Positions 7,477 through 53,580 of a DNA stretch of 64,000 nt are shown here, piece by piece; the first letter of the stretch is position 1; the number at the start of each line of letters is the position of its first letter. A program made the position numbers and the translations under genes. The stretch comes from Gammaproteobacteria bacterium (GTDB lineage: Bacteria; Pseudomonadota; Gammaproteobacteria; Steroidobacterales; UBA11654): NCBI GenBank assembly GCA_002717445.1, contig PBDY01000027.1:32747-96746 (forward strand). Reading direction: 5' to 3'. Under the pieces are notes generated by a model. It was not told the DNA's origin and did no database searches. It worked only from the letters and a program-made list of their open reading frames with translations.

Positions 7477-7707
7477 ATGAGCATTGACGAATTAATTGGT
7501 AATGTAAAAAAGGGAGACGTTCAATCGTCTAATAACAGTTTCAACACACTTATGGCAGATAAAATAAATTCTGCTTTAGATGGAAAGAGACAAGAAATCG
7601 CTCAAGGTATGTACGGAGAAGAAGTTCCTGTAGAGGAACCAGCGGATACTGAAGTAGCGGTGGAAGAACCTACAGCAGAGGAAACACCGAGTAGTGAAGA
7701 CGTTTAA
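7477..7707 (+). CDS. Prohead core protein (gp67-like)
   Basis: Small acidic protein between gp20 and gp21 (T4 synteny). Confidence 0.6.
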   Translation: MSIDELIGNVKKGDVQSSNNSFNTLMADKINSALDGKRQEIAQGMYGEEVPVEEPADTEVAVEEPTAEETPSSEDV

Positions 7708-7933
7708 AGAATCTTTCGACATTATAATTGAAAAGAAAATGAAACTGCCATCTGGTGAGAAGGTAGTTAAAGAATTATCTCGTTTGGGTAAAAAGAAGAA
7801 CGTTAATGCTGTTATTAGTAAGAAAGGTTCGAAGTTTAACCTATATGTGGACGGTCAGATGGTTGACGGTTTCAAAGACGAGAAGTCTGCCGATAAGGCA
7901 CTAAAAGAATTTATTAAAGTTATGGGTATTTGA
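7694..7933 (+). CDS. Small basic head protein (gp68 position)
   Basis: Synteny; N-terminus MKTFKESFDIIIE resembles a capsid-targeting sequence. Confidence 0.5.
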   Translation: MKTFKESFDIIIEKKMKLPSGEKVVKELSRLGKKKNVNAVISKKGSKFNLYVDGQMVDGFKDEKSADKALKEFIKVMGI

Positions 7934-7956: not shown

Positions 7957-8643
7957 ATGAAGTTAATCGCAGAATACACAGATACAGACCTTGGTTACTC
8001 AATAACTGAAGATGCAAAGAGCGGTAAGAAGAATGTTTTTATCGAAGGAGTCTTTATGTCTGCTGAATCCAAGAACAGAAATGGAAGAATTTATTCCAAG
8101 AAGGTTCTTGAGAAAGCAATTGAGAAATATAATCAAGACCAAGTAATTACAGGTCGTGCAGTTGGTGAGTTGAATCACCCTGACGGCCCATCTATTAATT
8201 TAGATAAAGTTTCTCACAGAATTACCGAACTCAAGTGGGACGGTAACAATGTGATGGGAAAGGCACTAGTTTTGGATACCCCTATGGGTCAGGTCGTTAA
8301 AGGCTTGGTTGAGGGTGGTGTACAACTTGGAGTGTCAAGTCGTGGTATGGGAAGTTTGGAAAGTAAGAATGGAGCTAACTATGTTAAGGATGATTTCCTA
8401 CTTAACACAGTTGATATCGTTCAAGACCCGTCGGCTCAAAATGCGTTCGTTAATGGCATTTATGAGGGGACTAATTGGTCTATGGACGAAGAAGGTCATT
8501 TTATACCTTTCAAGACTGTTGAAGAAGGTGAGACTGAAATGATGGAACCAGAAGTAGTTGAAGAAGAACCTATTGTCGAAGAAATTGTCGATAATAGTAA
8601 ATCTGAAATTGCAGGATTCGAACATTTCCTCTCTAAACTATAA
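7957..8643 (+). CDS. gp21: Prohead core protease
   Basis: MKLIAE start, NRNGRIY, GELNHP, LGVSSRGMGS, DIVQDPSA. Confidence 0.95.
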   Translation: MKLIAEYTDTDLGYSITEDAKSGKKNVFIEGVFMSAESKNRNGRIYSKKVLEKAIEKYNQDQVITGRAVGELNHPDGPSINLDKVSHRITELKWDGNNVMGKALVLDTPMGQVVKGLVEGGVQLGVSSRGMGSLESKNGANYVKDDFLLNTVDIVQDPSAQNAFVNGIYEGTNWSMDEEGHFIPFKTVEEGETEMMEPEVVEEEPIVEEIVDNSKSEIAGFEHFLSKL

Positions 8644-8662: not shown

Positions 8663-9748
8663 ATGTCTGAAAAAATTAAAGACGAAGTTGCCGACGAGAC
8701 TGTAGTTGAGGAAACTGTGGAAGAAGTAGTTGAAACTACTAGTGAAACGGAAACACCTTTAACTAAGGCTCGTACGTTATCAGCAATTTATGCTTCTTTA
8801 CAAGAAAAAAGTAAAGAGGAACTTGACGAGTTATTGGAAGCATCAAAGAAGAAAGCAGAAGCTGCTAAAGCGAAAGCTAAAACTGAAGATGATGACGAAG
8901 ATGACGAGGAAGATGATGACGAAGAAGATGAGGGTGATGTAGAAGAAGGCGCTGAACCAAAGACCAAAAAACTTTCTAAGAAGAAAGTTAAAGCGGACGA
9001 CGGTTCGGAAGGCGACGTAGTAGAGAAGAAGGGTAAATTCAAGGAAGATATTGATGCACTTGCTAAAGGTGAAGAATCTCTTTCTGAAGGCTTTAAAGAA
9101 AGAGCTGCCACGATTTTCGAAGCTGCATTACAGGAAAAAACTGCTACTAAAATCGCAGAGTTAGAGGACACTTATGCCTCTGACCTTGCTGAAGAAGTAC
9201 AAGCGGTTAAAGAAGACATGGTAGACAAAGTAGACGGTTATCTTAACTATGTAGTTGAGAACTGGATGAAAGAAAACGAAGTTGCAATTGAGCATTCTTT
9301 GAAATCTGAAATCACAGAATCGTTTATTGAAGCTATGCATGGTGTCTTTACAGAGCATTACATTAATGTTCCAGAAGATAAGGTTGAAATTGTTGATGCC
9401 TTAACTGAGGAACTAACTGATGCTAAAGACCAACTTAACAAGTCTACTGAAGATGCGAAAGAACTATCTGAGAAAGTTAAATCTTTCGAAAGACAAGCTG
9501 TCATATCTGAGGCGTGTGAAGGTCTTGCAAGTACTGAAGCTGCAAAAATTCAGAAGTTATGTGACGGTATAGAAGCCGACGATAACGCTGATTTTGCGAC
9601 TAAAGTTGCAACAATAAAGGAGTCTTACCTTTCTAAGGATACAGCGACGGACGACACAGAAGTGGACGCCATCTCTGAAGACAAAGCAGAAGTTGAAGTA
9701 ACTGACCAAATGGCCAAGTACATCGCTGCTATTAATAAAACCAAGTAA
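8663..9748 (+). CDS. gp22: Prohead scaffold (core) protein
   Basis: AAGGAG RBS before ATG 8663; acidic coiled coil, LSEGFKERAATIFEAA, VDGYLNYVVENWM. Confidence 0.9.
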   Translation: MSEKIKDEVADETVVEETVEEVVETTSETETPLTKARTLSAIYASLQEKSKEELDELLEASKKKAEAAKAKAKTEDDDEDDEEDDDEEDEGDVEEGAEPKTKKLSKKKVKADDGSEGDVVEKKGKFKEDIDALAKGEESLSEGFKERAATIFEAALQEKTATKIAELEDTYASDLAEEVQAVKEDMVDKVDGYLNYVVENWMKENEVAIEHSLKSEITESFIEAMHGVFTEHYINVPEDKVEIVDALTEELTDAKDQLNKSTEDAKELSEKVKSFERQAVISEACEGLASTEAAKIQKLCDGIEADDNADFATKVATIKESYLSKDTATDDTEVDAISEDKAEVEVTDQMAKYIAAINKTK

Positions 9749-9764: not shown

Positions 9765-10952
9765 ATGTCAATAGAATTACAAGCTGATACTTTACAGGAA
9801 AAATGGGAACCTGTATTGTCAACTGACGGTGGTATCACAGACTCTCACAAGAAGTCTGTAACTGCAGTTTTGTTGGAAAATCAGGAAATTGCCCTTAAAG
9901 AGGATATGGTTGCAGGTGGTGGAAATGCTACAGGCCCTGTCGATAACTTCGACCCTATCCTAATCTCGCTAGTTAGACGTTCTACTCCAAATCTTTTGGC
10001 GTTCGACGTTGCTGGTGTTCAACCTATGAAAGGCCCAACTGGTTTGATTTTTGCAATGAAATCAAACTATGCTGACGGTACGGACGGTACTAATGAAACT
10101 GAAGCTTTGTTTAACGAAGCAGATGATTCATTCTCTGGTGCTGGTTCTGCTGGTTCAGGTACTGGTATGGCGACTGCAACTGCAGAAGGTAACATTTCTG
10201 CAACAATGGGTTTCTCAATCGATAAGACTTCCGTTACGGCTAAGTCACGTCAATTGAAAGCACATTACACGCAAGAACTTGCTCAAGACCTTAAGGCTGT
10301 TCATGGACTTTCTGCTGAAACTGAATTGGCAAACATTTTGTCAACTGAGATTCTTCAGGAAATTAACCGTGAGTTAATCCACAAAATGACTACTAACGCT
10401 AAGCGTGGTCATGGGTTTGACGCTGCTGTAGGTGCTACTGCTGTTACTACTTCTGGTTCAGAAGTTGACGTATCAGATGGTCGCTGGGAAGTTGAAATCT
10501 ACAAAGCGATGATTACTCATATCGAGAAGCAAGCTAACTTAATCGCTGTTGATACTCGTCGTGGTAAAGGTAACTTTGCTATCGTCGGTACTGGCATCGC
10601 AGCTGCTCTAAATGCTACAGGTTCAGTACAGTACGGAAACGTTGCTGGAACTGGTCTTGAAGATGTAACTGGAAACCTTTTCTTAGGTACTCTAAACGGA
10701 ATGAAGATTTATGTCGACCCGTTTGGAACTGCTAACAGAATCGTTGTTGGTTATAAGGGTTCTAACTCTTATGATGCAGGTATGTTCTACTGCCCATACG
10801 TTCCATTAAGCATGATGAAGACAATCGGTGAGTCAGATTTCCAACCACGTATCGGGTTTAAAACTCGTTATGGTATGGCTGACAATCCATTTGTTACTGC
10901 TGGTGCAAACAACAACGTATACTACCGTCGTGTAGATGTAACTAACCTATAA
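9765..10952 (+). CDS. gp23: Major capsid protein
   Basis: GVQPMKGPTGLIFAM, ELAQDLKAVHGL, FYCPYVPL, FQPRIGFKTRYG. Confidence 0.98.
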   Translation: MSIELQADTLQEKWEPVLSTDGGITDSHKKSVTAVLLENQEIALKEDMVAGGGNATGPVDNFDPILISLVRRSTPNLLAFDVAGVQPMKGPTGLIFAMKSNYADGTDGTNETEALFNEADDSFSGAGSAGSGTGMATATAEGNISATMGFSIDKTSVTAKSRQLKAHYTQELAQDLKAVHGLSAETELANILSTEILQEINRELIHKMTTNAKRGHGFDAAVGATAVTTSGSEVDVSDGRWEVEIYKAMITHIEKQANLIAVDTRRGKGNFAIVGTGIAAALNATGSVQYGNVAGTGLEDVTGNLFLGTLNGMKIYVDPFGTANRIVVGYKGSNSYDAGMFYCPYVPLSMMKTIGESDFQPRIGFKTRYGMADNPFVTAGANNNVYYRRVDVTNL

Positions 10953-16767: not shown

Positions 16768-17340
16768 ATGCCTGAAAAGATTAAACCAAGAGATAAACCA
16801 CATTATGTAAATAATAGAGATTTTAGTAATGCCGTTGTCGATTATTGTAAACATTGTATTACTGAGGACGAGTCTGGTAATGAAAGACCAGTAGTAACTG
16901 ATTATATCGCAACGTGTTTTATGAAGATATGTGAAGGATTATCACACAAATCTAATTTCGTTAGATATACATATCGAGATGAAATGGTTATGGACGGAGT
17001 AGAGAATTGCCTTCGTGCGATACATAACTATAACATTGAAACAACTACTCGTACTGGTAAACCTAATGCTTTTGCATATTTCACACAGATAGCGTATTTC
17101 GCTTTCATTAGACGAATCACTAAAGAAAAGAAACAACAAGATATTAAGTTTCATTTCTTAGAACAAGCAGATATCGAATCCTTTATTACTTCAACAGATA
17201 CTAGTAATCCTATTGACCAAGCATATGTTGATGTGTTAAGGAATAAGATTGCATCAATCAAAAAGAAAGATGATGCTATTAAAGAGTTCGGTAAAGTTGT
17301 TAAAGAGAAGAAAGCAAAAGGAGTCGAATTGCATACATGA
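16768..17340 (+). CDS. gp55: Late transcription sigma factor
   Basis: HYVNNRDF, YTYRDEMVMDGVENC, NAFAYFTQIAYFAFIRRI. Confidence 0.95.
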   Translation: MPEKIKPRDKPHYVNNRDFSNAVVDYCKHCITEDESGNERPVVTDYIATCFMKICEGLSHKSNFVRYTYRDEMVMDGVENCLRAIHNYNIETTTRTGKPNAFAYFTQIAYFAFIRRITKEKKQQDIKFHFLEQADIESFITSTDTSNPIDQAYVDVLRNKIASIKKKDDAIKEFGKVVKEKKAKGVELHT

Positions 17341-19946: not shown

Positions 19947-19954
19947 TATAAATA
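19947..19954 (+). promoter_or_regulatory. Late promoter TATAAATA (membrane/transport operon)
   Basis: Exact intergenic motif upstream of 20036. Confidence 0.7.
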
Positions 19955-20035: not shown

Positions 20036-20935
20036 ATGTTTAAACAATTCTTTGAGGAGACAAAATGGCTCTTAATAATCGTAACCACAGTAATAATAAT
20101 CTTACTGGGAAACGTAGCATATTTTGTATGGGAAGATGGCAAGCTCGCTAGAGAGAATGAAGGTATTCCCGAATGGTTATGGAATCCAGAGGTAAGAGAA
20201 CTAGATGTAGTACTTAAAGGACTGGAGTTTAAACAACTAAAAGAAAATCTATACAGTCTGACAGGAACAGTTCGACAAGACGACTGCGAGAAAATCGTTC
20301 CTCTACTCCCTATTGATAAACCATTTTCAGTAATATTGGAATCGCCTGGCGGAAGTCTTTTTGATGGTGGTTGTATTGCTGCTCATTTCAAACTTAGAGA
20401 TGTTATCACAGTTGTTAGGGATACTCCTGTCTTAGATGAAGATGGTAATATATTGTATCAGCCTGGACTTATACCTATGGCAGATAAGAATGATGAAGGC
20501 GAGGGATATACAATATGTGCATCATCTTGTTCTTTAATATTCCTTGGTGGTGATTTAAGATATCTTATAGGTAATGTCTTTTTAGGTATTCACGCACCAC
20601 ATACACCCGAAGAAGTAATAAATACTATAGGAAAACGTGCATTAGAATCTGATGCATATAGAACAGCAGCCTCATTACAGTTGTTGTTAGAAAAACTTGG
20701 AGTAACCGACCCTAATTTGAGGTTGTTGTTTATTCAAGTACCAGCGGCTTCTATGTACTGGTTGACTCCAAGAGATTTTGAATCTCAACCAACATTAATT
20801 ACATTAGCAACGCACTATAAGAACTTCTGGGGATTTAACTTTGAAAATGAGTTCATGGATGTCATAGACTCCAATGAGGACAGAAAGATAATAATGGAAT
20901 CTGAACCACCACCAACTAAACCGGGGTTAAAATAA
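20036..20935 (+). CDS. Membrane-anchored ClpP/crotonase-like (COG3904-type) protein
   Basis: N-terminal TM helix, ESPGG, CASSCSLIFLGG..R, GIHAP. Confidence 0.65.
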   Translation: MFKQFFEETKWLLIIVTTVIIILLGNVAYFVWEDGKLARENEGIPEWLWNPEVRELDVVLKGLEFKQLKENLYSLTGTVRQDDCEKIVPLLPIDKPFSVILESPGGSLFDGGCIAAHFKLRDVITVVRDTPVLDEDGNILYQPGLIPMADKNDEGEGYTICASSCSLIFLGGDLRYLIGNVFLGIHAPHTPEEVINTIGKRALESDAYRTAASLQLLLEKLGVTDPNLRLLFIQVPAASMYWLTPRDFESQPTLITLATHYKNFWGFNFENEFMDVIDSNEDRKIIMESEPPPTKPGLK

Positions 20936-31977: not shown

Positions 31978-33396
31978 ATGAATATGAAATTACATAACGC
32001 AGACTGCATTATCAAAATGCAAGAGATGATTAACGAGGGTGTCAAAGTAGATTCTGTTGTTACTGACCCACCATATGAACTTGGATTTATGGGTAAGAGT
32101 TGGGATTCTACTGGAATCGCATTTCAACCAGACACTTGGAAACTCGCATATAAACTCCTAAAACCCGGTGGACACCTCTTAGCGTTCTCTGGTTCTAGGA
32201 CATATCACAGAATGGCAGTTGCAATAGAAGATGCAGGGTTCGAGATTCGTGACCAAATGATGTGGTTATACGGTTCCGGATTTCCTAAAAGTTTGAACTT
32301 AGGTAAAGGCGTTGACAGGCGCCTCGGAAATGAAAGAATAAAGACTGGCGAAACAAAGACACACGCTAGAAAAGGTGTTGCGATTGCAGAAGAAAGAAGT
32401 GCAATTGGCGCTGGTGCATTTGGTCAAGAAACAGAAGAAGAAGTAACCGTTGGAACATCTGAATGGGAAGGTTGGGGTACTGCTTTAAAACCAGCACACG
32501 AACCTGTGGTGGTTGCAAGGAAACCACTATCGGAAAAATCTATTGTAGATAATGTATTGAAACACGGAACTGGTGGTATCAATATTGATGGGTGTAGAAT
32601 CGACGGCGAAGTAGTAAGACCAGAATCAAATCCTGATTTCAGAGATATCGCTGATAAAGCAATGGCACAAGGTGGAGTGAACAAACTCAACTTTAATCAA
32701 ATGTCAGGTGCAAAGAGAAAAACAACTAAAAGAAAATCTAGAAGTAAAGACGGTGTATGGACTGATGATAATTCTGGAATGAGTGCAGAGGGTTCTGTAT
32801 ATGCTGATGCCGACCCCAGAGGAAGATTCCCTGCTAATGTTATGCACGATGGAAGTGATGTGATTACAAAAGAGTTCCCACAAACAGGTAAATCATCTGG
32901 TGGTGGTGGCGATAAAACCGTATCAAAGAATAAAAACGTTTTTGATGGTGGTTGGGGAAATATTCAATATGAAGATAACATTGGATATGGTGATAATGGT
33001 TCAGCAGCAAGATTCTTCTATTGTCCAAAGGTTTCCCAAACAGAAAGGAATGATGGATTAGATTCATTTGAAACAAAACAAACTCAAGGTGGTGGTGGTG
33101 GAATAGGTGATTATCAAGATGATGTCAATTCTGCTAGTGGTAAGTTCGGTAGTGAGAAAGCACCTAGTAAGAATACCCACCCAACAGTAAAACCTGTTGA
33201 GTTAATGAAATACCTTTGTAGATTGGTTACCCCGAAAGGTGGTACAGTCCTTGACCCATTTATGGGTTCTGGTTCAACTGGGATAGCCGCAAAAGATGAG
33301 GGATTCAATTTTATCGGAATCGAAAGAGAAAAGGAATACTATAATATTGCCAAATCTCGGATAGGGTCTAGTTCACCCTTAATGGACTTTATGTAA
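31978..33396 (+). CDS. DNA methyltransferase (beta class, DPPY; N6-adenine likely)
   Basis: TDPPY near the N-terminus; HPTVKP and DPFMGSGSTG near the C-terminus. Confidence 0.9.
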   Translation: MNMKLHNADCIIKMQEMINEGVKVDSVVTDPPYELGFMGKSWDSTGIAFQPDTWKLAYKLLKPGGHLLAFSGSRTYHRMAVAIEDAGFEIRDQMMWLYGSGFPKSLNLGKGVDRRLGNERIKTGETKTHARKGVAIAEERSAIGAGAFGQETEEEVTVGTSEWEGWGTALKPAHEPVVVARKPLSEKSIVDNVLKHGTGGINIDGCRIDGEVVRPESNPDFRDIADKAMAQGGVNKLNFNQMSGAKRKTTKRKSRSKDGVWTDDNSGMSAEGSVYADADPRGRFPANVMHDGSDVITKEFPQTGKSSGGGGDKTVSKNKNVFDGGWGNIQYEDNIGYGDNGSAARFFYCPKVSQTERNDGLDSFETKQTQGGGGGIGDYQDDVNSASGKFGSEKAPSKNTHPTVKPVELMKYLCRLVTPKGGTVLDPFMGSGSTGIAAKDEGFNFIGIEREKEYYNIAKSRIGSSSPLMDFM

Positions 33397-44355: not shown

Positions 44356-45711
44356 ATGCAAATCGAAACAATCATACTTCGTCATTTAATTCAAGACGAA
44401 ACTTTTATGAGGAAAACCATTCCTCATCTCGAACACAGATATTTCGAAGGCCCCCACGCACACGTCTTTAAGGGGATAGTGGACTTTGTTAATAAGTACG
44501 AGGAAATACCAGAACCTACTGCATTGGGAATTGAAATGCAGAGGAGTGCGAAACTTCCCAAAGAAGAAACTGCACAGACCTTTGATATCATATCTGAATT
44601 GAATGATAAGGTTAAAGATGTAAATGATTCTTGGTTACTTCAAAAGACAGAACAATGGTGTCAAGATAGGTCTATCTTTCTGGCAATTATGGAGTCGATT
44701 AATATTATCGACGGTAAGCATAAAGATTTAACGAAGAACGCCCTTCCCGACTTACTTCAAAATGCACTTCAAGTAAATTTCGATACTAATGTCGGACACG
44801 ATTATATCAACGACTCAGATGGACGATACGATTTCTATCATAAAAAGGAAGAACATCTCGAATTAGACTTAGAAATGATGAATCGGATAACCAAAGGAGG
44901 ATTCGTTAACAAATCTCTCAATATTGCAATGGCAGGTACTGGAGTTGGTAAGTCATTGTTTATGTGTCATTGTGCTGCTTCAGTATTATCAAGTGGTAAG
45001 AATGTATTGTATATCTCAATGGAAATGTCAGAAGAAAGGGTTGCAGAAAGAATTGATGCAAACCTAATGAATGTACCATTAGATGAACTCAAGAATCTCT
45101 CTAAGGATATGTTTGATAATAAGGTAAAACATATTGCAGACAAGGGAGTGGGTAAATTAATTATAAAAGAATATCCAACAGGTGCGGCTCACGTAGGTCA
45201 TTTCCGTTCCCTGTTGACAGAACTAAAAATGAAAAGGGATTTCGTTCCCAATTTGATTTGCATTGACTATATTAATATATGTGCATCATCTCGTATGAAA
45301 GATATGGGAAGTACATACACATATGTCAAGGCAATCGCAGAAGAATTGCGTGGTATGGCAGTAGAACAAAATGTTCCAATACTGTCCGCCACACAAACAA
45401 CACGGGGTGGTTATGACAATAGTGATGTTGGACTGACCGATACATCTGAATCATTTGGATTACCTGCAACTGCAGACTTAATGTTTGCAATTATATCTAC
45501 TGAAGAACTTGAGAATCTTAATCAGATTATGATAAAGCAACTGAAGAATAGGTATAACGACCCAACAGGTAAGACGAGAAGATTTGTCTTAGGAATCGAC
45601 AGGGCGAAGATGAGATTGTATGATGTAGAGGATTCAGCACAACAAGGATTTATAGATACTGACCAAGTTAAAGCTAGCGTAGTTGATGATTATGAAGGAT
45701 TTAAATTATGA
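44356..45711 (+). CDS. gp41: Replicative helicase
   Basis: AGTGVGKS, IKEYPT, IDYINIC, SESFGLPATAD, KQLKNRY. Confidence 0.96.
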   Translation: MQIETIILRHLIQDETFMRKTIPHLEHRYFEGPHAHVFKGIVDFVNKYEEIPEPTALGIEMQRSAKLPKEETAQTFDIISELNDKVKDVNDSWLLQKTEQWCQDRSIFLAIMESINIIDGKHKDLTKNALPDLLQNALQVNFDTNVGHDYINDSDGRYDFYHKKEEHLELDLEMMNRITKGGFVNKSLNIAMAGTGVGKSLFMCHCAASVLSSGKNVLYISMEMSEERVAERIDANLMNVPLDELKNLSKDMFDNKVKHIADKGVGKLIIKEYPTGAAHVGHFRSLLTELKMKRDFVPNLICIDYINICASSRMKDMGSTYTYVKAIAEELRGMAVEQNVPILSATQTTRGGYDNSDVGLTDTSESFGLPATADLMFAIISTEELENLNQIMIKQLKNRYNDPTGKTRRFVLGIDRAKMRLYDVEDSAQQGFIDTDQVKASVVDDYEGFKL

Positions 45712-46730
45712 ATAAGATATTCAATTGCGATATTATGGAAGGCTTTAAACAACTTGACTCCCAGTCAGTTGATTGTGTTATAACTTCCCCACCTTATTGG
45801 CAATTAAGAAACTATGGATTTGACGGACAATGGGGGTTAGAACCAACATTCGAAGAATACTTAGAAAACTTATGGAAAATGATGGACGAAATCAATCGTG
45901 TCTTGAAAGATACTGGAACTGTCTGGATTAACCTTGGTGATACTTACTCAACTAAATCCGGTGGATTTGCTCAAGAGGCCTCAAAGAGAACTCCAAGTAT
46001 GACTCAAAAATACTTAGACCATATAGGAACAATCCAACAACCAAGTAATCTACCTACGAAATCACTATTGTTAATTCCACATAGATTTGCAATAGGGTGT
46101 TTTGATAGAGGTTGGACTATACGTAACGATATCATATGGGCAAAAACTTCTGCAATGCCAGAATCCGTATTAGATAGATTCTCTAAAAAACACGAATACA
46201 TTTTCTTTATGACAAAGAAACCAAAAGGATATTACTTTGATTTAGATTCCGTAAGGGAAGAACATATGCAATCCACACTTAAAAGAGAAATGCGTGGAAG
46301 GAATACTGGTAAATATACTGGTGGCGCTGGTGGACAATCCGAACAAGGATTGATTAAAGAAAGAGAACACAAAGGATATGAGAATATGAAGGATATATAT
46401 GAATCCGGAGAAACTACCCTCAATCCTAAAGGAAAGAATCCAGGTGATGTTGCAGATTTCTGGAAGATAGGTACTGCAATGTCTAAGACAGAACATGTTG
46501 CATCATATAACCCAGCATTGATTGATAAACCAATTCTCGCTGGTTGTCCTAGAGGTGGAGTGGTATTAGACCCATTCTCTGGTACAGGTACAACATTGGT
46601 TCGTGCCTCTCAGTTAGGTAGACAGTATATCGGATTTGAGGCATCAGAACAGTTCTTTAAGATTACTGAGGAATCTGTTAATCAAGAAGAAGAACGTAAA
46701 TCACAACCAACAATTGAGGACTTTATATAA
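45708..46730 (+). CDS. DNA methyltransferase (beta class, SPPY; N4-cytosine or N6-adenine)
   Basis: TSPPYW, WINLGD, DPFSGTGTT. Confidence 0.9.
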   Translation: MNKIFNCDIMEGFKQLDSQSVDCVITSPPYWQLRNYGFDGQWGLEPTFEEYLENLWKMMDEINRVLKDTGTVWINLGDTYSTKSGGFAQEASKRTPSMTQKYLDHIGTIQQPSNLPTKSLLLIPHRFAIGCFDRGWTIRNDIIWAKTSAMPESVLDRFSKKHEYIFFMTKKPKGYYFDLDSVREEHMQSTLKREMRGRNTGKYTGGAGGQSEQGLIKEREHKGYENMKDIYESGETTLNPKGKNPGDVADFWKIGTAMSKTEHVASYNPALIDKPILAGCPRGGVVLDPFSGTGTTLVRASQLGRQYIGFEASEQFFKITEESVNQEEERKSQPTIEDFI

Positions 46731-47908: not shown

Positions 47909-47916
47909 TATAAATA
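47909..47916 (+). promoter_or_regulatory. Late promoter TATAAATA
   Basis: Exact intergenic motif heading the 47947-54750 gene run. Confidence 0.75.
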
Positions 47917-47946
47917 CTATTAGTCTTATAATACTTTTAATTCTTT

Positions 47947-49242
47947 ATGCACCAATTTAAATCATATTTAACAGATTCAACACCCTTTAAACTGACTCCG
48001 GAACTGCGTAAAGAACTGGAAGATATTGCTTCGTCCCTACCAGATGACAAGTTTAAGAAGGAGTATGGCGATGAGTGGAAGTCCGTGAAAATGGGTACTG
48101 CTATGAACATGCTTAAGAAAAAACACGGTTATAGTGAGTCGGTAGAATACCTAGAAGAAAAACTACTAATGATTAACAATGGTGCTCAATATGGGCAAAT
48201 AGTATTCCTTGCTGGTGGTGCAGGTTCAGGTAAAGGTTTTGCAATTGATAACTTTATGGAAGGACAGAAATTCAAAGTTATTGATGTGGACGAATGGAAA
48301 AAGAAGTTTTTAAAGTTAGCAAACGTTACTAATAAATACAAAGAGTTAAAAGGACTCAAGTTATCGAAACCAGCAGACGTTGAGAAGTTACACGACTTCG
48401 TTAAGAAGATGAAGATTAAGGATAAAGTCCTTAATAATATGATACTTCAAATGAAGAATAAAGAAACTTTACCCAATATAATGTTTGATATGACATTTAA
48501 TGATATAAAGAAAGCGAAAAAATTAATGCCAGACTTACTGAAAGCAGGGTATAATCCTGCTAATATACATTTAGTTTGGATATTGCAAGAGTACAGAATA
48601 GCATTAAAACAGAATAAAGACCCAGAGAGGGATAGGGTAGTGCCAAAGAATATTATGTTTCATACACACGAAGGAGCAGGTAAAACTATATATGAACTGC
48701 TCGCAAAGAAATCTAAACCAATTGCATTGAATGGTTCGATATCTGTGATACTGAATAACCCAAAGAATACGATATACTTTGAACCAACTGGTAATGAATC
48801 GAACCCTAAGAAGAAAGTGATAAAAGACTTTAAATATTTAACTTTGAAAAAACGTGGTCAACGAATGTTCAGAGACCAAATCGTAATGAAAGAGTTATTC
48901 TTTTGGATTAAGGCAAGTATTCCAAAAGGTGAGTTCTCAAAGTTTATGCAAGCCAAAGTGGATAATCCGGAACTAGATGAAAGCTTTAAACAATTTCATA
49001 AGGAGGAACAAGCTTTGAGATTTATAGACTTATTACCGAAAAAGGTTAAACACGCAATAAGAAGAATTGCACATAAAGACAAGTATAAGGCCGCTTTACA
49101 TATGTATCATGGATTGAAGAAAGACCCAGATGCGAAAAAAAGATTGACTGATAAGAAGATGAAAGAGATAGCGGCTGACCATTTCAAATTAAAACATAAA
49201 GAATTTGAGGCGATATTAAACAGAAAAACGAGGTATCAATAA
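47947..49242 (+). CDS. P-loop kinase (zeta-toxin/AAA_33-like) with extra N- and C-terminal modules
   Basis: IVFLAGGAGSGKG, VIDVDE, MFDMT, RDRVVP. Confidence 0.7.
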   Translation: MHQFKSYLTDSTPFKLTPELRKELEDIASSLPDDKFKKEYGDEWKSVKMGTAMNMLKKKHGYSESVEYLEEKLLMINNGAQYGQIVFLAGGAGSGKGFAIDNFMEGQKFKVIDVDEWKKKFLKLANVTNKYKELKGLKLSKPADVEKLHDFVKKMKIKDKVLNNMILQMKNKETLPNIMFDMTFNDIKKAKKLMPDLLKAGYNPANIHLVWILQEYRIALKQNKDPERDRVVPKNIMFHTHEGAGKTIYELLAKKSKPIALNGSISVILNNPKNTIYFEPTGNESNPKKKVIKDFKYLTLKKRGQRMFRDQIVMKELFFWIKASIPKGEFSKFMQAKVDNPELDESFKQFHKEEQALRFIDLLPKKVKHAIRRIAHKDKYKAALHMYHGLKKDPDAKKRLTDKKMKEIAADHFKLKHKEFEAILNRKTRYQ

Positions 49243-49583
49243 TGTCTGAACCACAATTAGATTTAAGAGAGACAGCAGGTGTAAGATTAGATGTAAAGAC
49301 CTTAGTGGGTATTATCGCAATGATATTATCTATCGCTGGTGTTTACTTTTCTCTACAAGGACAGATAGCACAATTACAATTAGACGTTATCCGTTTGCAA
49401 GACCAACAAGCAATGAATACAGAGTTTAGAATCAAATGGCCCAGAGGTGAACTTGGTGCTTTACCAGATGATGCTGTACAAGATATAAATATTGAATATC
49501 TAAAGGAATCAGTAGATGATTTAATTGACGAACTGGACGAAGTTTCTAAGGAGATTGAAGACCATATAAGGGAGAGAGAATGA
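49242..49583 (+). CDS. Single-TM coiled-coil protein
   Basis: TM LVGIIAMILSIAGVYF followed by heptad repeats. Confidence 0.6.
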   Translation: MSEPQLDLRETAGVRLDVKTLVGIIAMILSIAGVYFSLQGQIAQLQLDVIRLQDQQAMNTEFRIKWPRGELGALPDDAVQDINIEYLKESVDDLIDELDEVSKEIEDHIRERE

Positions 49584-50668
49584 AAAAATTTAGAAGTTTC
49601 TTAACAGAGAAAAGAGCGGATACCACACAGAACGCTTCTGTTACGGAATTGTTTCCAGCACTTGCATTTAATCATAAGTTCCACCCAACTAGTGTAGAGG
49701 ACTTTAAGAAGTTCTTATATAAAACTAATCTCAAAGGTGTGAATGCTAAAAAATCATTCCAAGTAAAGGACGCTAGTTCAGCTGCTCTGGTTATAGAGAG
49801 GTTGCCTCTTATGAAGGAAACATTCTCTAAGACCAAAATAGAAAATGCAATAGGTATCACAAACTACTTGTATGACTTACACGACGAAAAACCTATATCT
49901 AAGGTTGTGTGGGGTTATCGTGCAAAACCAAAAGGTATTCCAAAGAGTCACGCTGGTGATATATTTGTACTGTTCACAGATAAGTCTTGGTTGGGAATCT
50001 CTTTGAAAGCAGGTGCAAAGAAATCCAGAGAACCACTTTACAATACGTATGTAGGAACACAATACGATAAGAGAGGTTGGAGTAAAGATAAGTTAGCGAA
50101 AGCACTTTGGACACAAGTATACAAGAAGATTCCGGGAGTTACTACTGTCGGTGAAGATGGTATCAAACCTACTGCGAAAGAGTTCTATAAAAATACGAAA
50201 CAAAGAAAGAAAATTGTCGGACACTATGTCGATATGTTCGAAGCTGACCAATCAGCTGCTGATGAACTATATCACAAACAAGTTAAGGTATGTATCACTC
50301 AATTGTGTAAAGAAGTCAACAAAATGTCTAATGCAGATTTTATAGATTGGTTAGGTTCGGATTTCAATCTAGAGAAGAAAGGTGAGAAAGTACCTTTGAT
50401 TCTAGTGAAGGCTGTCGGTAAGACTGCAGACAGAAAAGGTGATGACCTTGCACCAGTATACAAAACAATTACAGGTCATATCGCATATAGAAATAAGAAG
50501 TCAGTCCAAGAATGGTTGATTGATGTTTTCTTACCAGAAGGTAAACTCACCCTTACAATGGTTTGTCGTAGTGATTCCGGAGTTCGTAGAGAGAAGGGAA
50601 CTAGTGGTCAGGGTAGATTAGGACAGTTCTTACAATTAAAAGTATTATATACAGGAGTAAAAAAATAA
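49580..50668 (+). CDS. Hypothetical protein, possible PD-(D/E)XK-like nuclease fold
   Basis: TE...AGDIFV...GISLK pattern; N-terminus MKKFRSFLTE. Confidence 0.5.
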   Translation: MKKFRSFLTEKRADTTQNASVTELFPALAFNHKFHPTSVEDFKKFLYKTNLKGVNAKKSFQVKDASSAALVIERLPLMKETFSKTKIENAIGITNYLYDLHDEKPISKVVWGYRAKPKGIPKSHAGDIFVLFTDKSWLGISLKAGAKKSREPLYNTYVGTQYDKRGWSKDKLAKALWTQVYKKIPGVTTVGEDGIKPTAKEFYKNTKQRKKIVGHYVDMFEADQSAADELYHKQVKVCITQLCKEVNKMSNADFIDWLGSDFNLEKKGEKVPLILVKAVGKTADRKGDDLAPVYKTITGHIAYRNKKSVQEWLIDVFLPEGKLTLTMVCRSDSGVRREKGTSGQGRLGQFLQLKVLYTGVKK

Positions 50669-50759
50669 TGTTTACAACAATAGCATTTATAGTAGGATTC
50701 GTTTTGGGTTGGTTTATTAACGATAAAATTGATGCAGTAAAGGATTCGAAGTTGAACCC

Positions 50760-51983
50760 ATGGCGTTAGATTTTAAAAACTACATATTCGAAGCAAAGAA
50801 CACCCATATGACTCATGTCGAGGATATGGTTATAGACGGTGGTGTTGCTGGTACTCGTGCGGCCATTAATGCGTTGCGTGATTTACGCAATATGCTAGCG
50901 GGGAGTACAAATGACACAAAACAAGTTACGGTCAAATGGGACGGAGCGCCGGCAGTATTCGCTGGTATCGACCCCAATGATGACGAGTTCTTTGTCGCTA
51001 AGAAAGGTATTTTCAATAAGAACCCTAAAGTATATAAGTCTCATAGTGAGATTGACGCTGACACCTCTGGAGATTTATCTGATAAACTCAAGGTTGCGTA
51101 TACTGAATTAAAAAAGGTTGTTAAGAGTGGAGTATACCAAGGTGACATTATGTTCATCAAGAAAGACCTCAAAACAGAAAAGATTGACGGACTGAAATAT
51201 ATTACATTTCACCCGAACACCATAGTCTATGCAGTACCAACAGACCAAGCAAAAGATATAAAGAAATCAAAAATTGGTGTGGTATGGCATACAAAATACA
51301 CGGGAAGTACATTTGATACAATGTCTGCTTCCTTTAGTGTAAAGGATTCCGACTTCAAAGCAACCAAATCGGTGTGGCAGAAGACGGCAAATTTACCAGA
51401 CATATCAGGTCTGGCAACATTAAACAAAAAGGAAACAGATGAAATTACTAAACACATTTCAATGGCGGGAAAACTCTTTCAAAAAATCAAAGCTTCTACG
51501 CTTAAAGACGTATCTACAAATACAGATATTAACCTATTTATCAATACCTTTCGCAATGCGAAGGTTAGAGAGCAAAGTGAAATCACAAACACGACGAAAC
51601 ATACCCAAGACCTAATCAATTGGATACATAAGAGATATGATAAAGAAATCAAGAAACTTAAGTCGGATAAGGGTAAGGCCAGGAAGAACGCCGCCAAGAT
51701 AGCCGCACTTGATTGGTTCAATGCATCTAATAAAAAGAACCTAAAACTGATGTTTGATATGCAAAATGAACTAGTATCTGCAAAATCTAAACTGTTAACG
51801 CACTTGGATACCATGGATAGTATAAATACATTTGTAAAGACTAAAAACGGTTTTAAGGTTACTGGTGCAGAAGGATATGTTGCAATCGACCATTTAACTA
51901 ATGGTGCAGTAAAGATTGTAGATAGAATGGAATTTAGTCATAACAACTTTAGCAAAAACATAATCAAAGGGTGGGACAAATAA
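50760..51983 (+). CDS. DUF6267-like protein with ligase-type KxDG motif
   Basis: KNTHMTHVED, TVKWDGAPA, YQGDIMF, EGYV...KIVDR. Confidence 0.6.
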   Translation: MALDFKNYIFEAKNTHMTHVEDMVIDGGVAGTRAAINALRDLRNMLAGSTNDTKQVTVKWDGAPAVFAGIDPNDDEFFVAKKGIFNKNPKVYKSHSEIDADTSGDLSDKLKVAYTELKKVVKSGVYQGDIMFIKKDLKTEKIDGLKYITFHPNTIVYAVPTDQAKDIKKSKIGVVWHTKYTGSTFDTMSASFSVKDSDFKATKSVWQKTANLPDISGLATLNKKETDEITKHISMAGKLFQKIKASTLKDVSTNTDINLFINTFRNAKVREQSEITNTTKHTQDLINWIHKRYDKEIKKLKSDKGKARKNAAKIAALDWFNASNKKNLKLMFDMQNELVSAKSKLLTHLDTMDSINTFVKTKNGFKVTGAEGYVAIDHLTNGAVKIVDRMEFSHNNFSKNIIKGWDK

Positions 51984-52756
51984 TGCCAGGTAAATTAAAA
52001 TACGATACTTATCATAAAGAATTCACAGGTGCAATACAACACGCATATGCAGTTGTAAAGAAACAGGGGTATAAGATTGATAAAGATTCTCAATGGAATG
52101 ACGTTACTACTGGCCCTAAGAAACCCGGAAAAGGTAAGACAAATGAATATCACTTGAAGTTGAAAGGGTCGAAAAAAGCACTTCATATTCAAGTATATAA
52201 TACTGGCCCAAAATACGAACTAAACATGTACATAGAGGAGACTGACATGACAGAGATAGACGAAATGCTTACATTGTTGGAAACTATCGACGAGGAGTAT
52301 TGTGGTTGTAAAGACCATAAGAATCACGAAGATTGCAACGAAGATAACTGTGAGTGTATGCAACCAGAGTTCACCGAAACTGAACTCGACGAGATTAAGA
52401 ACGCTGATACTATAGATGAGGTATCAATGCAGACTCGTAAGAAAATGAAGATGGCAATGAAACGTAATGCGAAGAAGATTCAAAAGAAACGTAAACGTGC
52501 CATGAAACGAGTAGGAATGACCAAAGACCAAGCGAAGAAAGCTGCAATGGCAGCCGCAAGAAAAGTAATCGCATCTAAATTGGTTAAAGGTAAAACCAAA
52601 GCACAAATGAGTAATGCTGAAAAGGGCAATCTTGAAAAGAGAATGTCAAACCCTAAACTGAAGAAGAAGATGGCAATGTTGTCAAAGAAACTTCTCAAGA
52701 AGGTTAAAGCGGCCCACAAGGCAAAAGCAATGGCAATGAAGCAGAAAAAGAAATAA
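51983..52756 (+). CDS. Hypothetical protein with Cys/His cluster and very basic K/A/M-rich tail
   Basis: CGCKDH..H..C....CEC, then a long Lys-rich helical C-terminus. Confidence 0.6.
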   Translation: MPGKLKYDTYHKEFTGAIQHAYAVVKKQGYKIDKDSQWNDVTTGPKKPGKGKTNEYHLKLKGSKKALHIQVYNTGPKYELNMYIEETDMTEIDEMLTLLETIDEEYCGCKDHKNHEDCNEDNCECMQPEFTETELDEIKNADTIDEVSMQTRKKMKMAMKRNAKKIQKKRKRAMKRVGMTKDQAKKAAMAAARKVIASKLVKGKTKAQMSNAEKGNLEKRMSNPKLKKKMAMLSKKLLKKVKAAHKAKAMAMKQKKK

Positions 52757-53580
52757 TGATTAATACATTTAAACAACATTATTTAGAAGCAGTTTCTACT
52801 GAGGAGATTGTCGTATCGTTTGGTAGATTCAATCCACCAACAAACGGTCACGAAAAACTTCTTGCGAAGGTTTCTAAGATTTCCGGGGGAATGCCTTATA
52901 GGATTTACGCATCACAAACTAATGACGCCAAAAAGAATCCTCTATCTTACAAGGCCAAGATTAAGTTTATGCGTAAGATGTTCCCTAAACATGCAAGGTC
53001 TATAATTGCAGACAAGAAAATCAAAACATTGTTTAATGTATTATCTAAGGTTCAAGACGACGGATTCAAGAAATGTTCTGTCGTAGTTGGTTCAGATAGA
53101 GTCCAAGAGTTTGATAAAATACTTAACAAGTACAATGGTGTTAAGGGTAAACACGGATTCTATGACTTTGAAGGTGGTGTAAAAATAGTAAGTGCAGGCG
53201 AGAGAGACCCCGATTCAGATGATGTATCTGGAATGTCTGCAAGTAAACTAAGGTTGGCTGCAAAGGAAAACGACCTCATTACATTCACTAAAGGTATGCC
53301 GAAGGGTTTCAAAGATGCAAAGGGTTTAATGAACGCTGTTCGTGACGGTATGGGTTTGAAAGAATCCGACGAATACAAACAGAATTGTAAGTTAAAAAGA
53401 AAGTCCTATATAAGAGAGAAGTATGTAAATGGTAAACTATTTAATATTGGTGATAAAGTTATTATTACTAAGACTAGGGAAGATGCTATTGTACAAGGAC
53501 TAAATGCTAATCATATAAGTGTATTAGTAAATGATGAAATGAAAAACGTCTGGATATCAGACATTGTTAGGAGTAAATAA
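52756..53580 (+). CDS. HxGH-type (cytidylyltransferase-like) nucleotidyltransferase
   Basis: FGRFNPPTNGH, KNPL, VVGSDR, SAGERDPD, MSASK. Confidence 0.85.
   Translation: MINTFKQHYLEAVSTEEIVVSFGRFNPPTNGHEKLLAKVSKISGGMPYRIYASQTNDAKKNPLSYKAKIKFMRKMFPKHARSIIADKKIKTLFNVLSKVQDDGFKKCSVVVGSDRVQEFDKILNKYNGVKGKHGFYDFEGGVKIVSAGERDPDSDDVSGMSASKLRLAAKENDLITFTKGMPKGFKDAKGLMNAVRDGMGLKESDEYKQNCKLKRKSYIREKYVNGKLFNIGDKVIITKTREDAIVQGLNANHISVLVNDEMKNVWISDIVRSK

Follow-up and report, generated by a model that had tools for sequence, protein, structure and literature searches.

What do four unrelated late enzymes of an aquatic T4-like phage have to do with one another that they should begin with nearly the same short peptide? 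The question is raised by a 64,000-nucleotide stretch of DNA (the window, whose numbering is used below) that is part of a 106-kb contig, C28 (36% G+C), in an assembly of 1.5 Mb and 31 contigs. C28 is a T4-like phage fragment and has homologues of gp21, gp22, gp23 and gp55. A preliminary description of this DNA had placed a late promoter at 47909 and reported that unrelated proteins with similar N-termini follow it; the octamer, TATAAATA, which occurs 29 times on C28, and all four N-termini were confirmed: MHQFKSYLTD (gene 47947), MKKFRSFLTE (49580), MALDFKNYIFE (50760) and MINTFKQHYLE (52756), with the common pattern MxxF-x-x-F/Y/H-L-x-E. The promoter and the four genes are:

47909..47916, forward strand, T4-type late promoter TATAAATA at the head of the putative cargo operon, 38 nt upstream of 47947
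47947..49242, forward strand, 431-aa three-cassette fusion of a small N-terminal cassette, a P-loop kinase and, at the C-terminus, a small basic cassette; last leader residue Asp
49580..50668, forward strand, 362-aa PD-(D/E)xK-fold nuclease-like protein (phrog_2496); leader ends LTE10
50760..51983, forward strand, DUF6267 protein (Pfam E 1e-96) with a predicted ligase-type covalent nucleotidyltransferase fold; leader ends IFE11
52756..53580, forward strand, HIGH-family nucleotidyltransferase ("cytidyltransferase", phrog_395) with a small C-terminal domain; leader ends YLE11

The internal proteins of T4 carry the capsid targeting sequence MKTYQEFIAE. By analogy, the leader shared by the four late enzymes is probably a capsid-targeting propeptide, and since it resembles this head-loading tag, the enzymes would likely be packed in the particle and injected with the DNA. 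As in T4-type cargo, the leaders are short and shared and have hydrophobic residues near positions 4 and 7, and the late promoter is accompanied by the phage's own gp55, gp21 and gp22 homologues. In related loci, the octamer lies at most 2.5 kb upstream of the DUF6267 gene in 73/95 cases, compared with 9/95 on the reverse strand. The head and late-transcription genes of the window are:

7957..8643, forward strand, gp21-like head maturation protease, the predicted leader-processing enzyme (phrog_207, E 1e-75)
8663..9748, forward strand, gp22-like scaffold (phrog_237) with 14 [IL]xE sites by motif count
9765..10952, forward strand, gp23-like major head protein (phrog_138) with LQE at residue 12 by motif position
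16768..17340, forward strand, gp55-like late sigma factor (phrog_234, E 1e-48)

A leader profile was built from 66 leader 7-mers of metagenomic homologues of 49580 and 50760 and applied with a threshold of 5, which was reached by 6/161 open reading frames (ORFs) of the phage contig and 5/1329 ORFs of the other contigs. The five highest scores among the 161 belonged to 49580 (15.5), 50760 (12.7), 20036 (11.9), 52756 (11.7) and 47947 (9.1); because the profile was built from relatives of 49580 and 50760, it is circular for those two and an independent test only for 47947 and 52756. The leader score of 20036 (20036-20935, a 299-aa predicted membrane protein downstream of a late promoter at 19947, with no PHROG match) is probably a false positive.

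When the profile was instead restricted to 19 leader 7-mers of the 49580 family, scores of at least 5 were obtained for 71/110 DUF6267 proteins, 47/69 nucleotidyltransferases and 6/10 kinases, whereas among other genes of the same loci they were obtained for 1/54 helicases, 1/36 UvsX proteins and 0/34 DUF7207 proteins. Pooled over sets chosen post hoc, this amounts to 123/244 for the families of this island and 8/295 for core families. The leader, compared in this way with the N-termini of non-cargo genes, is enriched on island families and nearly absent from replication genes.

The leader also varies independently of the proteins that carry it. In the 49580 family, whose conserved core was located in 116/120 sequences, leaders are mostly 9-37 residues long, and 95 of 101 distinct leaders have [IL]xE within 8 residues of the core, against a background of 67/4730 core 8-mers. 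Among 150 DUF6267 representatives, 96 have short leaders (81 with [IL]xE), 17 have fusion junctions in place of a free N-terminus (13 with [IL]xE), 17 are leaderless and 20 could not be parsed. A FastTree tree covering 104/118 rows required 14 gains or losses of the leader, 6 of them forced by strong branches, with the proviso that the start may have been mis-called in some of the leaderless rows. The leader is disordered in both structure models (residues 1-13 of 49580, 1-10 of 50760), and a kinase homologue (35%) with such a leader occurs in phiEap-3, a member of the Straboviridae, T4's own family. To judge from these sequences and models, the leader is a detachable, portable tag that is variable in length, unfolded, repeatedly gained and lost, and kept at fusion junctions.

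The virion proteomes of relatives, taken from the accessible portions of the papers cited here and below, agree modestly with packaging. Two tagged homologues of 52756, S-CREM2 gp154 (34% identity) and S-SZBM1_140 (43%), are present in virion proteomes (PMC10665884, PMC9146016), and the family was found in S-SM1 virions and not in the other two proteomes of the same study (PMC3037559), which gives three published proteomes with the family and two that missed it. A virion NMNAT-like protein is also reported in PMC9602691, and the accessible part of PMC12801897 does not name NMNAT among non-structural virion proteins. The DUF6267 proteins of S-CREM2 and S-SZBM1 have no leader and are absent from the virion lists; the DUF6267 cluster of PMC3037559 (T4-GC71, matched by eye) was not flagged among the 30/51 flagged rows covered. 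In S-CREM2, four of the five N-termini scoring highest with the leader profile belong to virion proteins (4/52 versus 1/167, p 0.012; the threshold, 5, was one of three applied). The top scorer of S-SZBM1, for which 23/30 virion proteins were mapped and one probably mis-mapped, is the virion transferase, and pooling the two phages gave p 0.0036. Processed N-termini were not seen for the 52756 homologues in the published proteomes compared. The virion lists thus favour packaging of the transferase family and say nothing direct about tagged DUF6267, nuclease or kinase.

What the four proteins are bears on what they could do after injection. The label of 50760 as a KxDG ligase-like protein held up when its model (pLDDT 94) was compared with 48,161 chains: the top 8 fold matches are RNA ligases (5cot, Z 8.3, rmsd 4.0, 185 aligned; 1xdn, 7.8; 2hvq, 7.5), followed by DNA ligases, where a Z under 8 can be chance and the top matches are tied within about 1 Z. 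The lysine of KWDG is K59, and K59, D61, G62, K82, G128, D129, E371, G372 and K385 are invariant in 118 sequences; the KxDG lysine and motifs III-V are present on an adenylation-domain fold, with Asp replacing the motif III Glu. The uniform match list and the invariant residues agree, which in the model points to an RNA-ligase-like adenylation-domain fold. A PDB profile search found no ligase for 50760, and hhalign gave a probability of 0.2 against one ligase, the phiEap-3 RNA ligase. Its closest relatives among cultured phages are in C48C1 (54%), Melnitz (46%) and DLP6 (43%); DUF6267 matches comprise 457 phage records and 2,495 clusters at 50% identity, and no paper on DUF6267 was found by name in the literature searched, subscription journals being mostly outside it. 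In three proteins (P0429, P0462, P0469), DUF6267 lies within long fusions with an ADP-ribosyltransferase domain (ART-PolyVal), recalling T4 Alt. A further TATAAATA stands at 51821, within the 3' part of the DUF6267 gene, and recurs at about the same position in related loci (L001-L008, L010, L011); it may act as a late promoter inside the gene that serves those further downstream, or may simply result from codon conservation.

For 49580, the structure model (pLDDT 88) supports the earlier nuclease-like label with a restriction-type fold. The best match is HinP1I (Z 6.5, rmsd 4.7, 194 aligned), and Dna2, ACE1, AdnA and MspI follow with weak but consistent scores; E23, D127, S141, K143 and E151 are invariant in 81 sequences, in agreement with a PD-(D/E)xK catalytic core at moderate scores. 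The position that it occupies is exchangeable: across 96 loci, the nearest upstream ORF of at least 200 aa belongs to 29 families. A PD-(D/E)xK-like pattern is present in 54/96 of these slot ORFs (shuffles: mean 20, maximum 29), 28 of the 54 being members of the 49580 family, which the search enriched; counted per family, the pattern occurs in 11/29 slot families versus 31/183 (p 0.012). In a Pfam scan of 25 proteins, none of the nuclease-like slot proteins received a name. DNA methyltransferases (phrog_67) are encoded at 31978-33396 and 45708-46730 of the window; a methylase gene ends 1.2 kb upstream of the operon, and methylase-like motifs occur in only 5/96 slot loci.

The idea that GCRYGC is a self-site of the 49580 nuclease was rejected as a lineage or host effect once longer contigs were considered. 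In 127 dereplicated loci, GCRYGC was the best of 638 patterns, with 11 observed versus 139 expected in carriers of the 49580 family and 230 versus 341 in non-carriers. On the contig that carries the closest homologue (G001), 11 sites stand against 21 expected and no palindrome is depleted, and the site is also avoided by G017, G019, G021, G024, G026, G027 and G029, none of which was fetched as a carrier. On the longer contigs, GCRYGC was outside the top 12 of 194 patterns, GCATGC was absent from 11/14 carriers and 8/17 others (p 0.077), and no carrier-specific site avoidance was found for the family.

Although the sequence of 52756 predicts a HIGH transferase, it is not assignable among NMNAT, PPAT and others. 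It matches PF01467 with 26.3 bits (cut-off 21), with an HxGH-type motif (FNPPTNGH) and a downstream SxS-x-R motif, while the NCBIfam NadR, NadD-type and CoaD models score 13-16 bits, far under their cut-offs for an NMNAT or PPAT equivalog. A PDB sequence search gave no useful match; PDB profile searches gave weak ones, MJ0951 (E 0.02), NMNAT (E 0.6-1.7) and PPAT (E 0.87), and the best, MJ0951/UPF0348, which we take to be a relative of tRNA cytidine acetate ligase, was not repeated with a deeper alignment. The Atlas search returned viral CTP_transf_like clusters only. In phage NAD reconstitution systems (NARS), the partner is an Adps or Nampt gene.

The core of 47947 is a Zeta_toxin-like P-loop kinase (Pfam E 7e-7; PF06414, 29.3 bits, cut-off 22.3; phrog_5268, E 2e-45) with the P-loop GAGSGKG, and a PDB sequence search gave no useful match. 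Each of its three cassettes also exists separately, as a leader-bearing gene, in L007, L008 and L001, and the core of the stand-alone kinase of L008 starts at the same point as the core that follows LEE71 in 47947. Two internal sites mark the junctions:

48151..48159, forward strand, internal L-E-E site, residues 69-71, immediately upstream of the kinase core by motif position
48973..49008, forward strand, remnant of a leader inside the protein, residues 343-354 (LDE, then FKQFHKE), preceding the C-terminal cassette (internal profile score 9.6)

Cleavage by T4 gp21 occurs at L/I-X-E, and the targeting rules of T4 hold that Asp at position 10 prevents cleavage while still permitting targeting (PMC9026906); the Asp-ended leader of 47947 fits this rule of targeting without cleavage.

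Do these enzymes form one kit? The transferase gene follows DUF6267 in 95/111 loci (the other 16 may include truncated loci), the two are fused in both orders, and kinase-DUF6267 and transferase-kinase fusions also exist. A kinase gene, by contrast, lies within 5 kb of DUF6267 in only 13/124 loci. The linkage of the transferase, the rarity of the kinase and the exchange of the slot point to a modular cargo locus whose stable predicted core is DUF6267 plus nucleotidyltransferase, with an exchangeable nuclease-like slot and an optional kinase. The operon also holds genes without a leader:

49242..49583, forward strand, 113-aa membrane protein as predicted from sequence, no leader (phrog_20984), with a second TATAAATA at 49484
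50668..50769, forward strand, predicted ORF for a 33-aa hydrophobic peptide, between the nuclease and DUF6267 genes and overlapping both
51983..52756, forward strand, 257-aa cassette protein with an acidic middle containing six [IL]xE sites, a very basic C-terminal half and no N-terminal leader

The basic half of 51983 is a separate gene in relatives, and 17/48 members of its family carry a leader. Two other related loci (L141:5272-5892, L151:6973-8004) contain a tagged HAD-type phosphatase family that weakly matches the polynucleotide kinase family phrog_415.

On the T4 model, the leader would load the four enzymes into the prohead, the gp21-like protease would trim it after the Glu, and the enzymes would be injected with the DNA and act before phage gene expression. 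The operon would be a cargo island open to any gene that acquires the tag. For 47947, the Asp-ended leader would target and stay uncut, and internal cuts at LEE71 and LDE345 would release the kinase. As to the job of the cargo, we can offer only the tentative proposal of early takeover and counter-defence, in which the nuclease might cut non-self DNA, DUF6267 adenylate and seal broken nucleic-acid ends, and the HIGH enzyme make NAD or a related adenylated cofactor. It is likewise conceivable, though speculative, that T4-like phages of marine and fresh waters share an injection platform with interchangeable parts: a portable tag would load into the head an undescribed enzyme of the ligase superfamily, a nucleotidyltransferase and a restriction-fold nuclease that is rapidly exchanged, some of them as polyproteins cut by the head protease. 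The nuclease might then arrive ready-made to attack the DNA of the host or of rival phages, with DUF6267 as the partner that seals or adenylates ends. If so, the tag could be used to search for injected effectors, a large set as yet unexplored.

Several observations weigh against packaging of the enzymes. An exact L/I-X-E end is present only in 49580 (LTE10) and 50760 (IFE11), since 47947 ends LTD and 52756 YLE; homologous leaders are not independent observations; and packaging and processing are predictions for this phage, the virion data being those of relatives. In S-CREM2, pre-set regular expressions were not enriched among virion proteins (5/52 versus 8/167, p 0.17; 6/52 versus 12/167, p 0.23), the profile gave p 0.14 at threshold 8 and p 1 at threshold 10, and rank tests gave p 0.60 and 0.20; S-SZBM1 alone gave 1/23 versus 2/225 (p 0.25). 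The top scorer of S-CREM2, gp175, and the second of S-SZBM1 were undetected in virions, and the tagged nucleotidyltransferase of Syn9 is marked as not detected (PMC3037559; column order inferred). In several cyanophages DUF6267 has no tag and was not detected in the virion, the published proteomes compared include no homologue of DUF6267 or 49580 that carries the tag, and the authors of the S-CREM2 (PMC10665884) and S-SCSM1 (PMC9602691) studies allow for purification carry-over. The fold scores are moderate (Z 8.3 for 50760, 6.5 for 49580), and Foldseek found no match at E <=0.001 for either model. Relatives swap or drop members of the set: the kinase is seldom near DUF6267, and the nuclease slot is exchanged among many families. 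The co-packaged enzyme kit of the preliminary description therefore stands in part: the leaders, their cross-family enrichment, the modular behaviour and the virion data for 52756 homologues speak for it, while the four enzymes are not a fixed unit, two leaders miss the exact site, and the jobs suggested for the cargo (RNA repair, NAD restoration, counter-defence) are conjectural.

Could the motif instead simply follow from the composition of N-termini encoded by A+T-rich late genes, with no targeting role and with virion matches that reflect carry-over? We consider this very improbable: false positives do exist (20036; 5/1329 ORFs on other contigs) and the S-CREM2 regular expressions were not significant, but structural late genes of the same genomes lack the motif, and it is retained inside fusions, ending in Glu right before conserved cores. 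It is also rather unlikely that the leaders load cargo that stays in the head or serves assembly and DNA packing, as basic filler or in nick sealing, and is never injected. Many island products are indeed small basic cassettes with many [IL]xE sites, like cut-up T4 core proteins (PMC9026906), and folded enzymes of 400 aa far exceed the T4 internal proteins in size; T4, however, ejects its internal proteins, Alt and tagged foreign enzymes (PMC9026906, PMC5694885), and the hypervariability of the nuclease slot speaks for conflict more than for assembly.

Two further alternatives concern the cargo, and we give each a small minority share of the probability. The four enzymes could be injected to work together in a single pathway, healing and sealing RNA or DNA that host defences have broken, in the manner of PNKP/Rnl. 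DUF6267 resembles RNA ligases, the transferase is linked and fused to it as described, kinase fusions exist, and a related island kinase family matches the polynucleotide kinase family phrog_505 (E 5e-6), as the island HAD family matches phrog_415; but the kinase is near in only 13/124 loci, the S-SZBM1 transferase is in the virion while the adjacent DUF6267 is not, and adjacency alone can yield fusions. Similarly doubtful is that the slot nucleases, 49580 among them, are free-standing homing endonucleases hitch-hiking on the island rather than phage tools. The interchange of unrelated nuclease-like families at one site beside a conserved gene would be expected of such elements, and the absence of self-site avoidance fits long recognition sites; many slot nucleases nevertheless carry the leader, which a homing enzyme would not need unless aimed at co-infecting phages. 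We continue to favour a capsid-targeting propeptide on the four enzymes as the reading of the leader.

One further candidate named in the preliminary description is probably not leader-bearing cargo:

7694..7933, forward strand, 79-aa ORF 7694 with a GTG start, in prohead-core position, with IIE at residue 13 (leader profile score -10)

Its score makes it a poor match despite the IIE, and its place between a "prohead" gene (phrog_1064) and the protease gene makes a prohead core protein more likely than cargo. Upstream of the window, leader-like starts cluster a second time ahead of the neck genes, at G000:C28:27355-29480; the group comprises a 65-aa ORF, a basic ORF of 552 aa in which [IL]xE-like sites are numerous, and an ORF with a GTG start and a score of 9.0. 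C28 as a whole avoids several restriction sites, observed versus expected: GATC 0 versus ~396, CGCG 0 versus 49, GGWCC 1 versus 90 and GCRYGC 1 versus 20. The other contigs of the assembly lack comparable avoidance; its extremity on C28 suggests strong restriction pressure from the host.

How does this locus compare with what is known? The T4 tag system is textbook knowledge (PMC3012670, PMC9026906, PMC5694885, PMC12373910), and virion carriage of the transferase family has been published. We found no paper extending the capsid targeting tag to cyanophages or Kyanoviridae in a search that mostly excluded subscription journals and supplements, which may bear on the point. The present analysis itself tested the three-cassette kinase, the leave-family-out test, the comparison of tagged with untagged virion proteins, the hypervariable slot and the negative site test. 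Were the leader a targeting tag, a simple N-terminal pattern would predict which proteins are injected throughout one of the most common groups of aquatic phages, and DUF6267 would be a new branch of the ligase superfamily to assay.

Among individual enzymes, 49580 resembles the Type II PD-(D/E)xK restriction endonucleases HinP1I and MspI in fold and in its conserved E, D and S-L-K core, but differs in its weak scores, late promoter and leader and in lacking a consistent methylase partner and self-site avoidance. Like the OB-less ATP-dependent RNA ligases NgrRnl (5cot), T. brucei REL1 (1xdn), T4 Rnl2 (2hvq) and Trl1 (6n0t), 50760 has a predicted adenylation-domain fold with counterparts of motifs I, Ia, III, IIIa, IV and V; unlike them, it has Asp where motif III has Glu, carries a helical insert (~130 residues) ahead of motif IV and ends ~20 residues past motif V, at 8-16% identity. 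The virion "cytidylyltransferase/NMNAT" of cyanophages (T4-GC190; PMC3037559, PMC10665884, PMC9146016, PMC9602691) is homologous to 52756 (34-43%) and lies in the same neighbourhood; the NMNAT label is an annotation, and the accessible text of those papers gives neither targeting mechanism nor assay. Where that protein was left open as cargo or carry-over, the leader offers a mechanism and a direct test. The closest parallel for the system as a whole is provided by T4 IPI-IPIII and Alt (PMC9026906, PMC5694885, PMC12373910, PMC3012670), in which, as here, an N-terminal leader of ~10 residues with hydrophobic residues near positions 4 and 7 and a terminal Glu precedes unrelated mature proteins in a phage with T4-type head genes and a late promoter. 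The T4 internal proteins are small GmrSD inhibitors, whereas the putative cargo here consists of enzymes of 270-430 aa, with leaders that range from 9 to ~37 residues, that many orthologues lack and that are retained within fusions.

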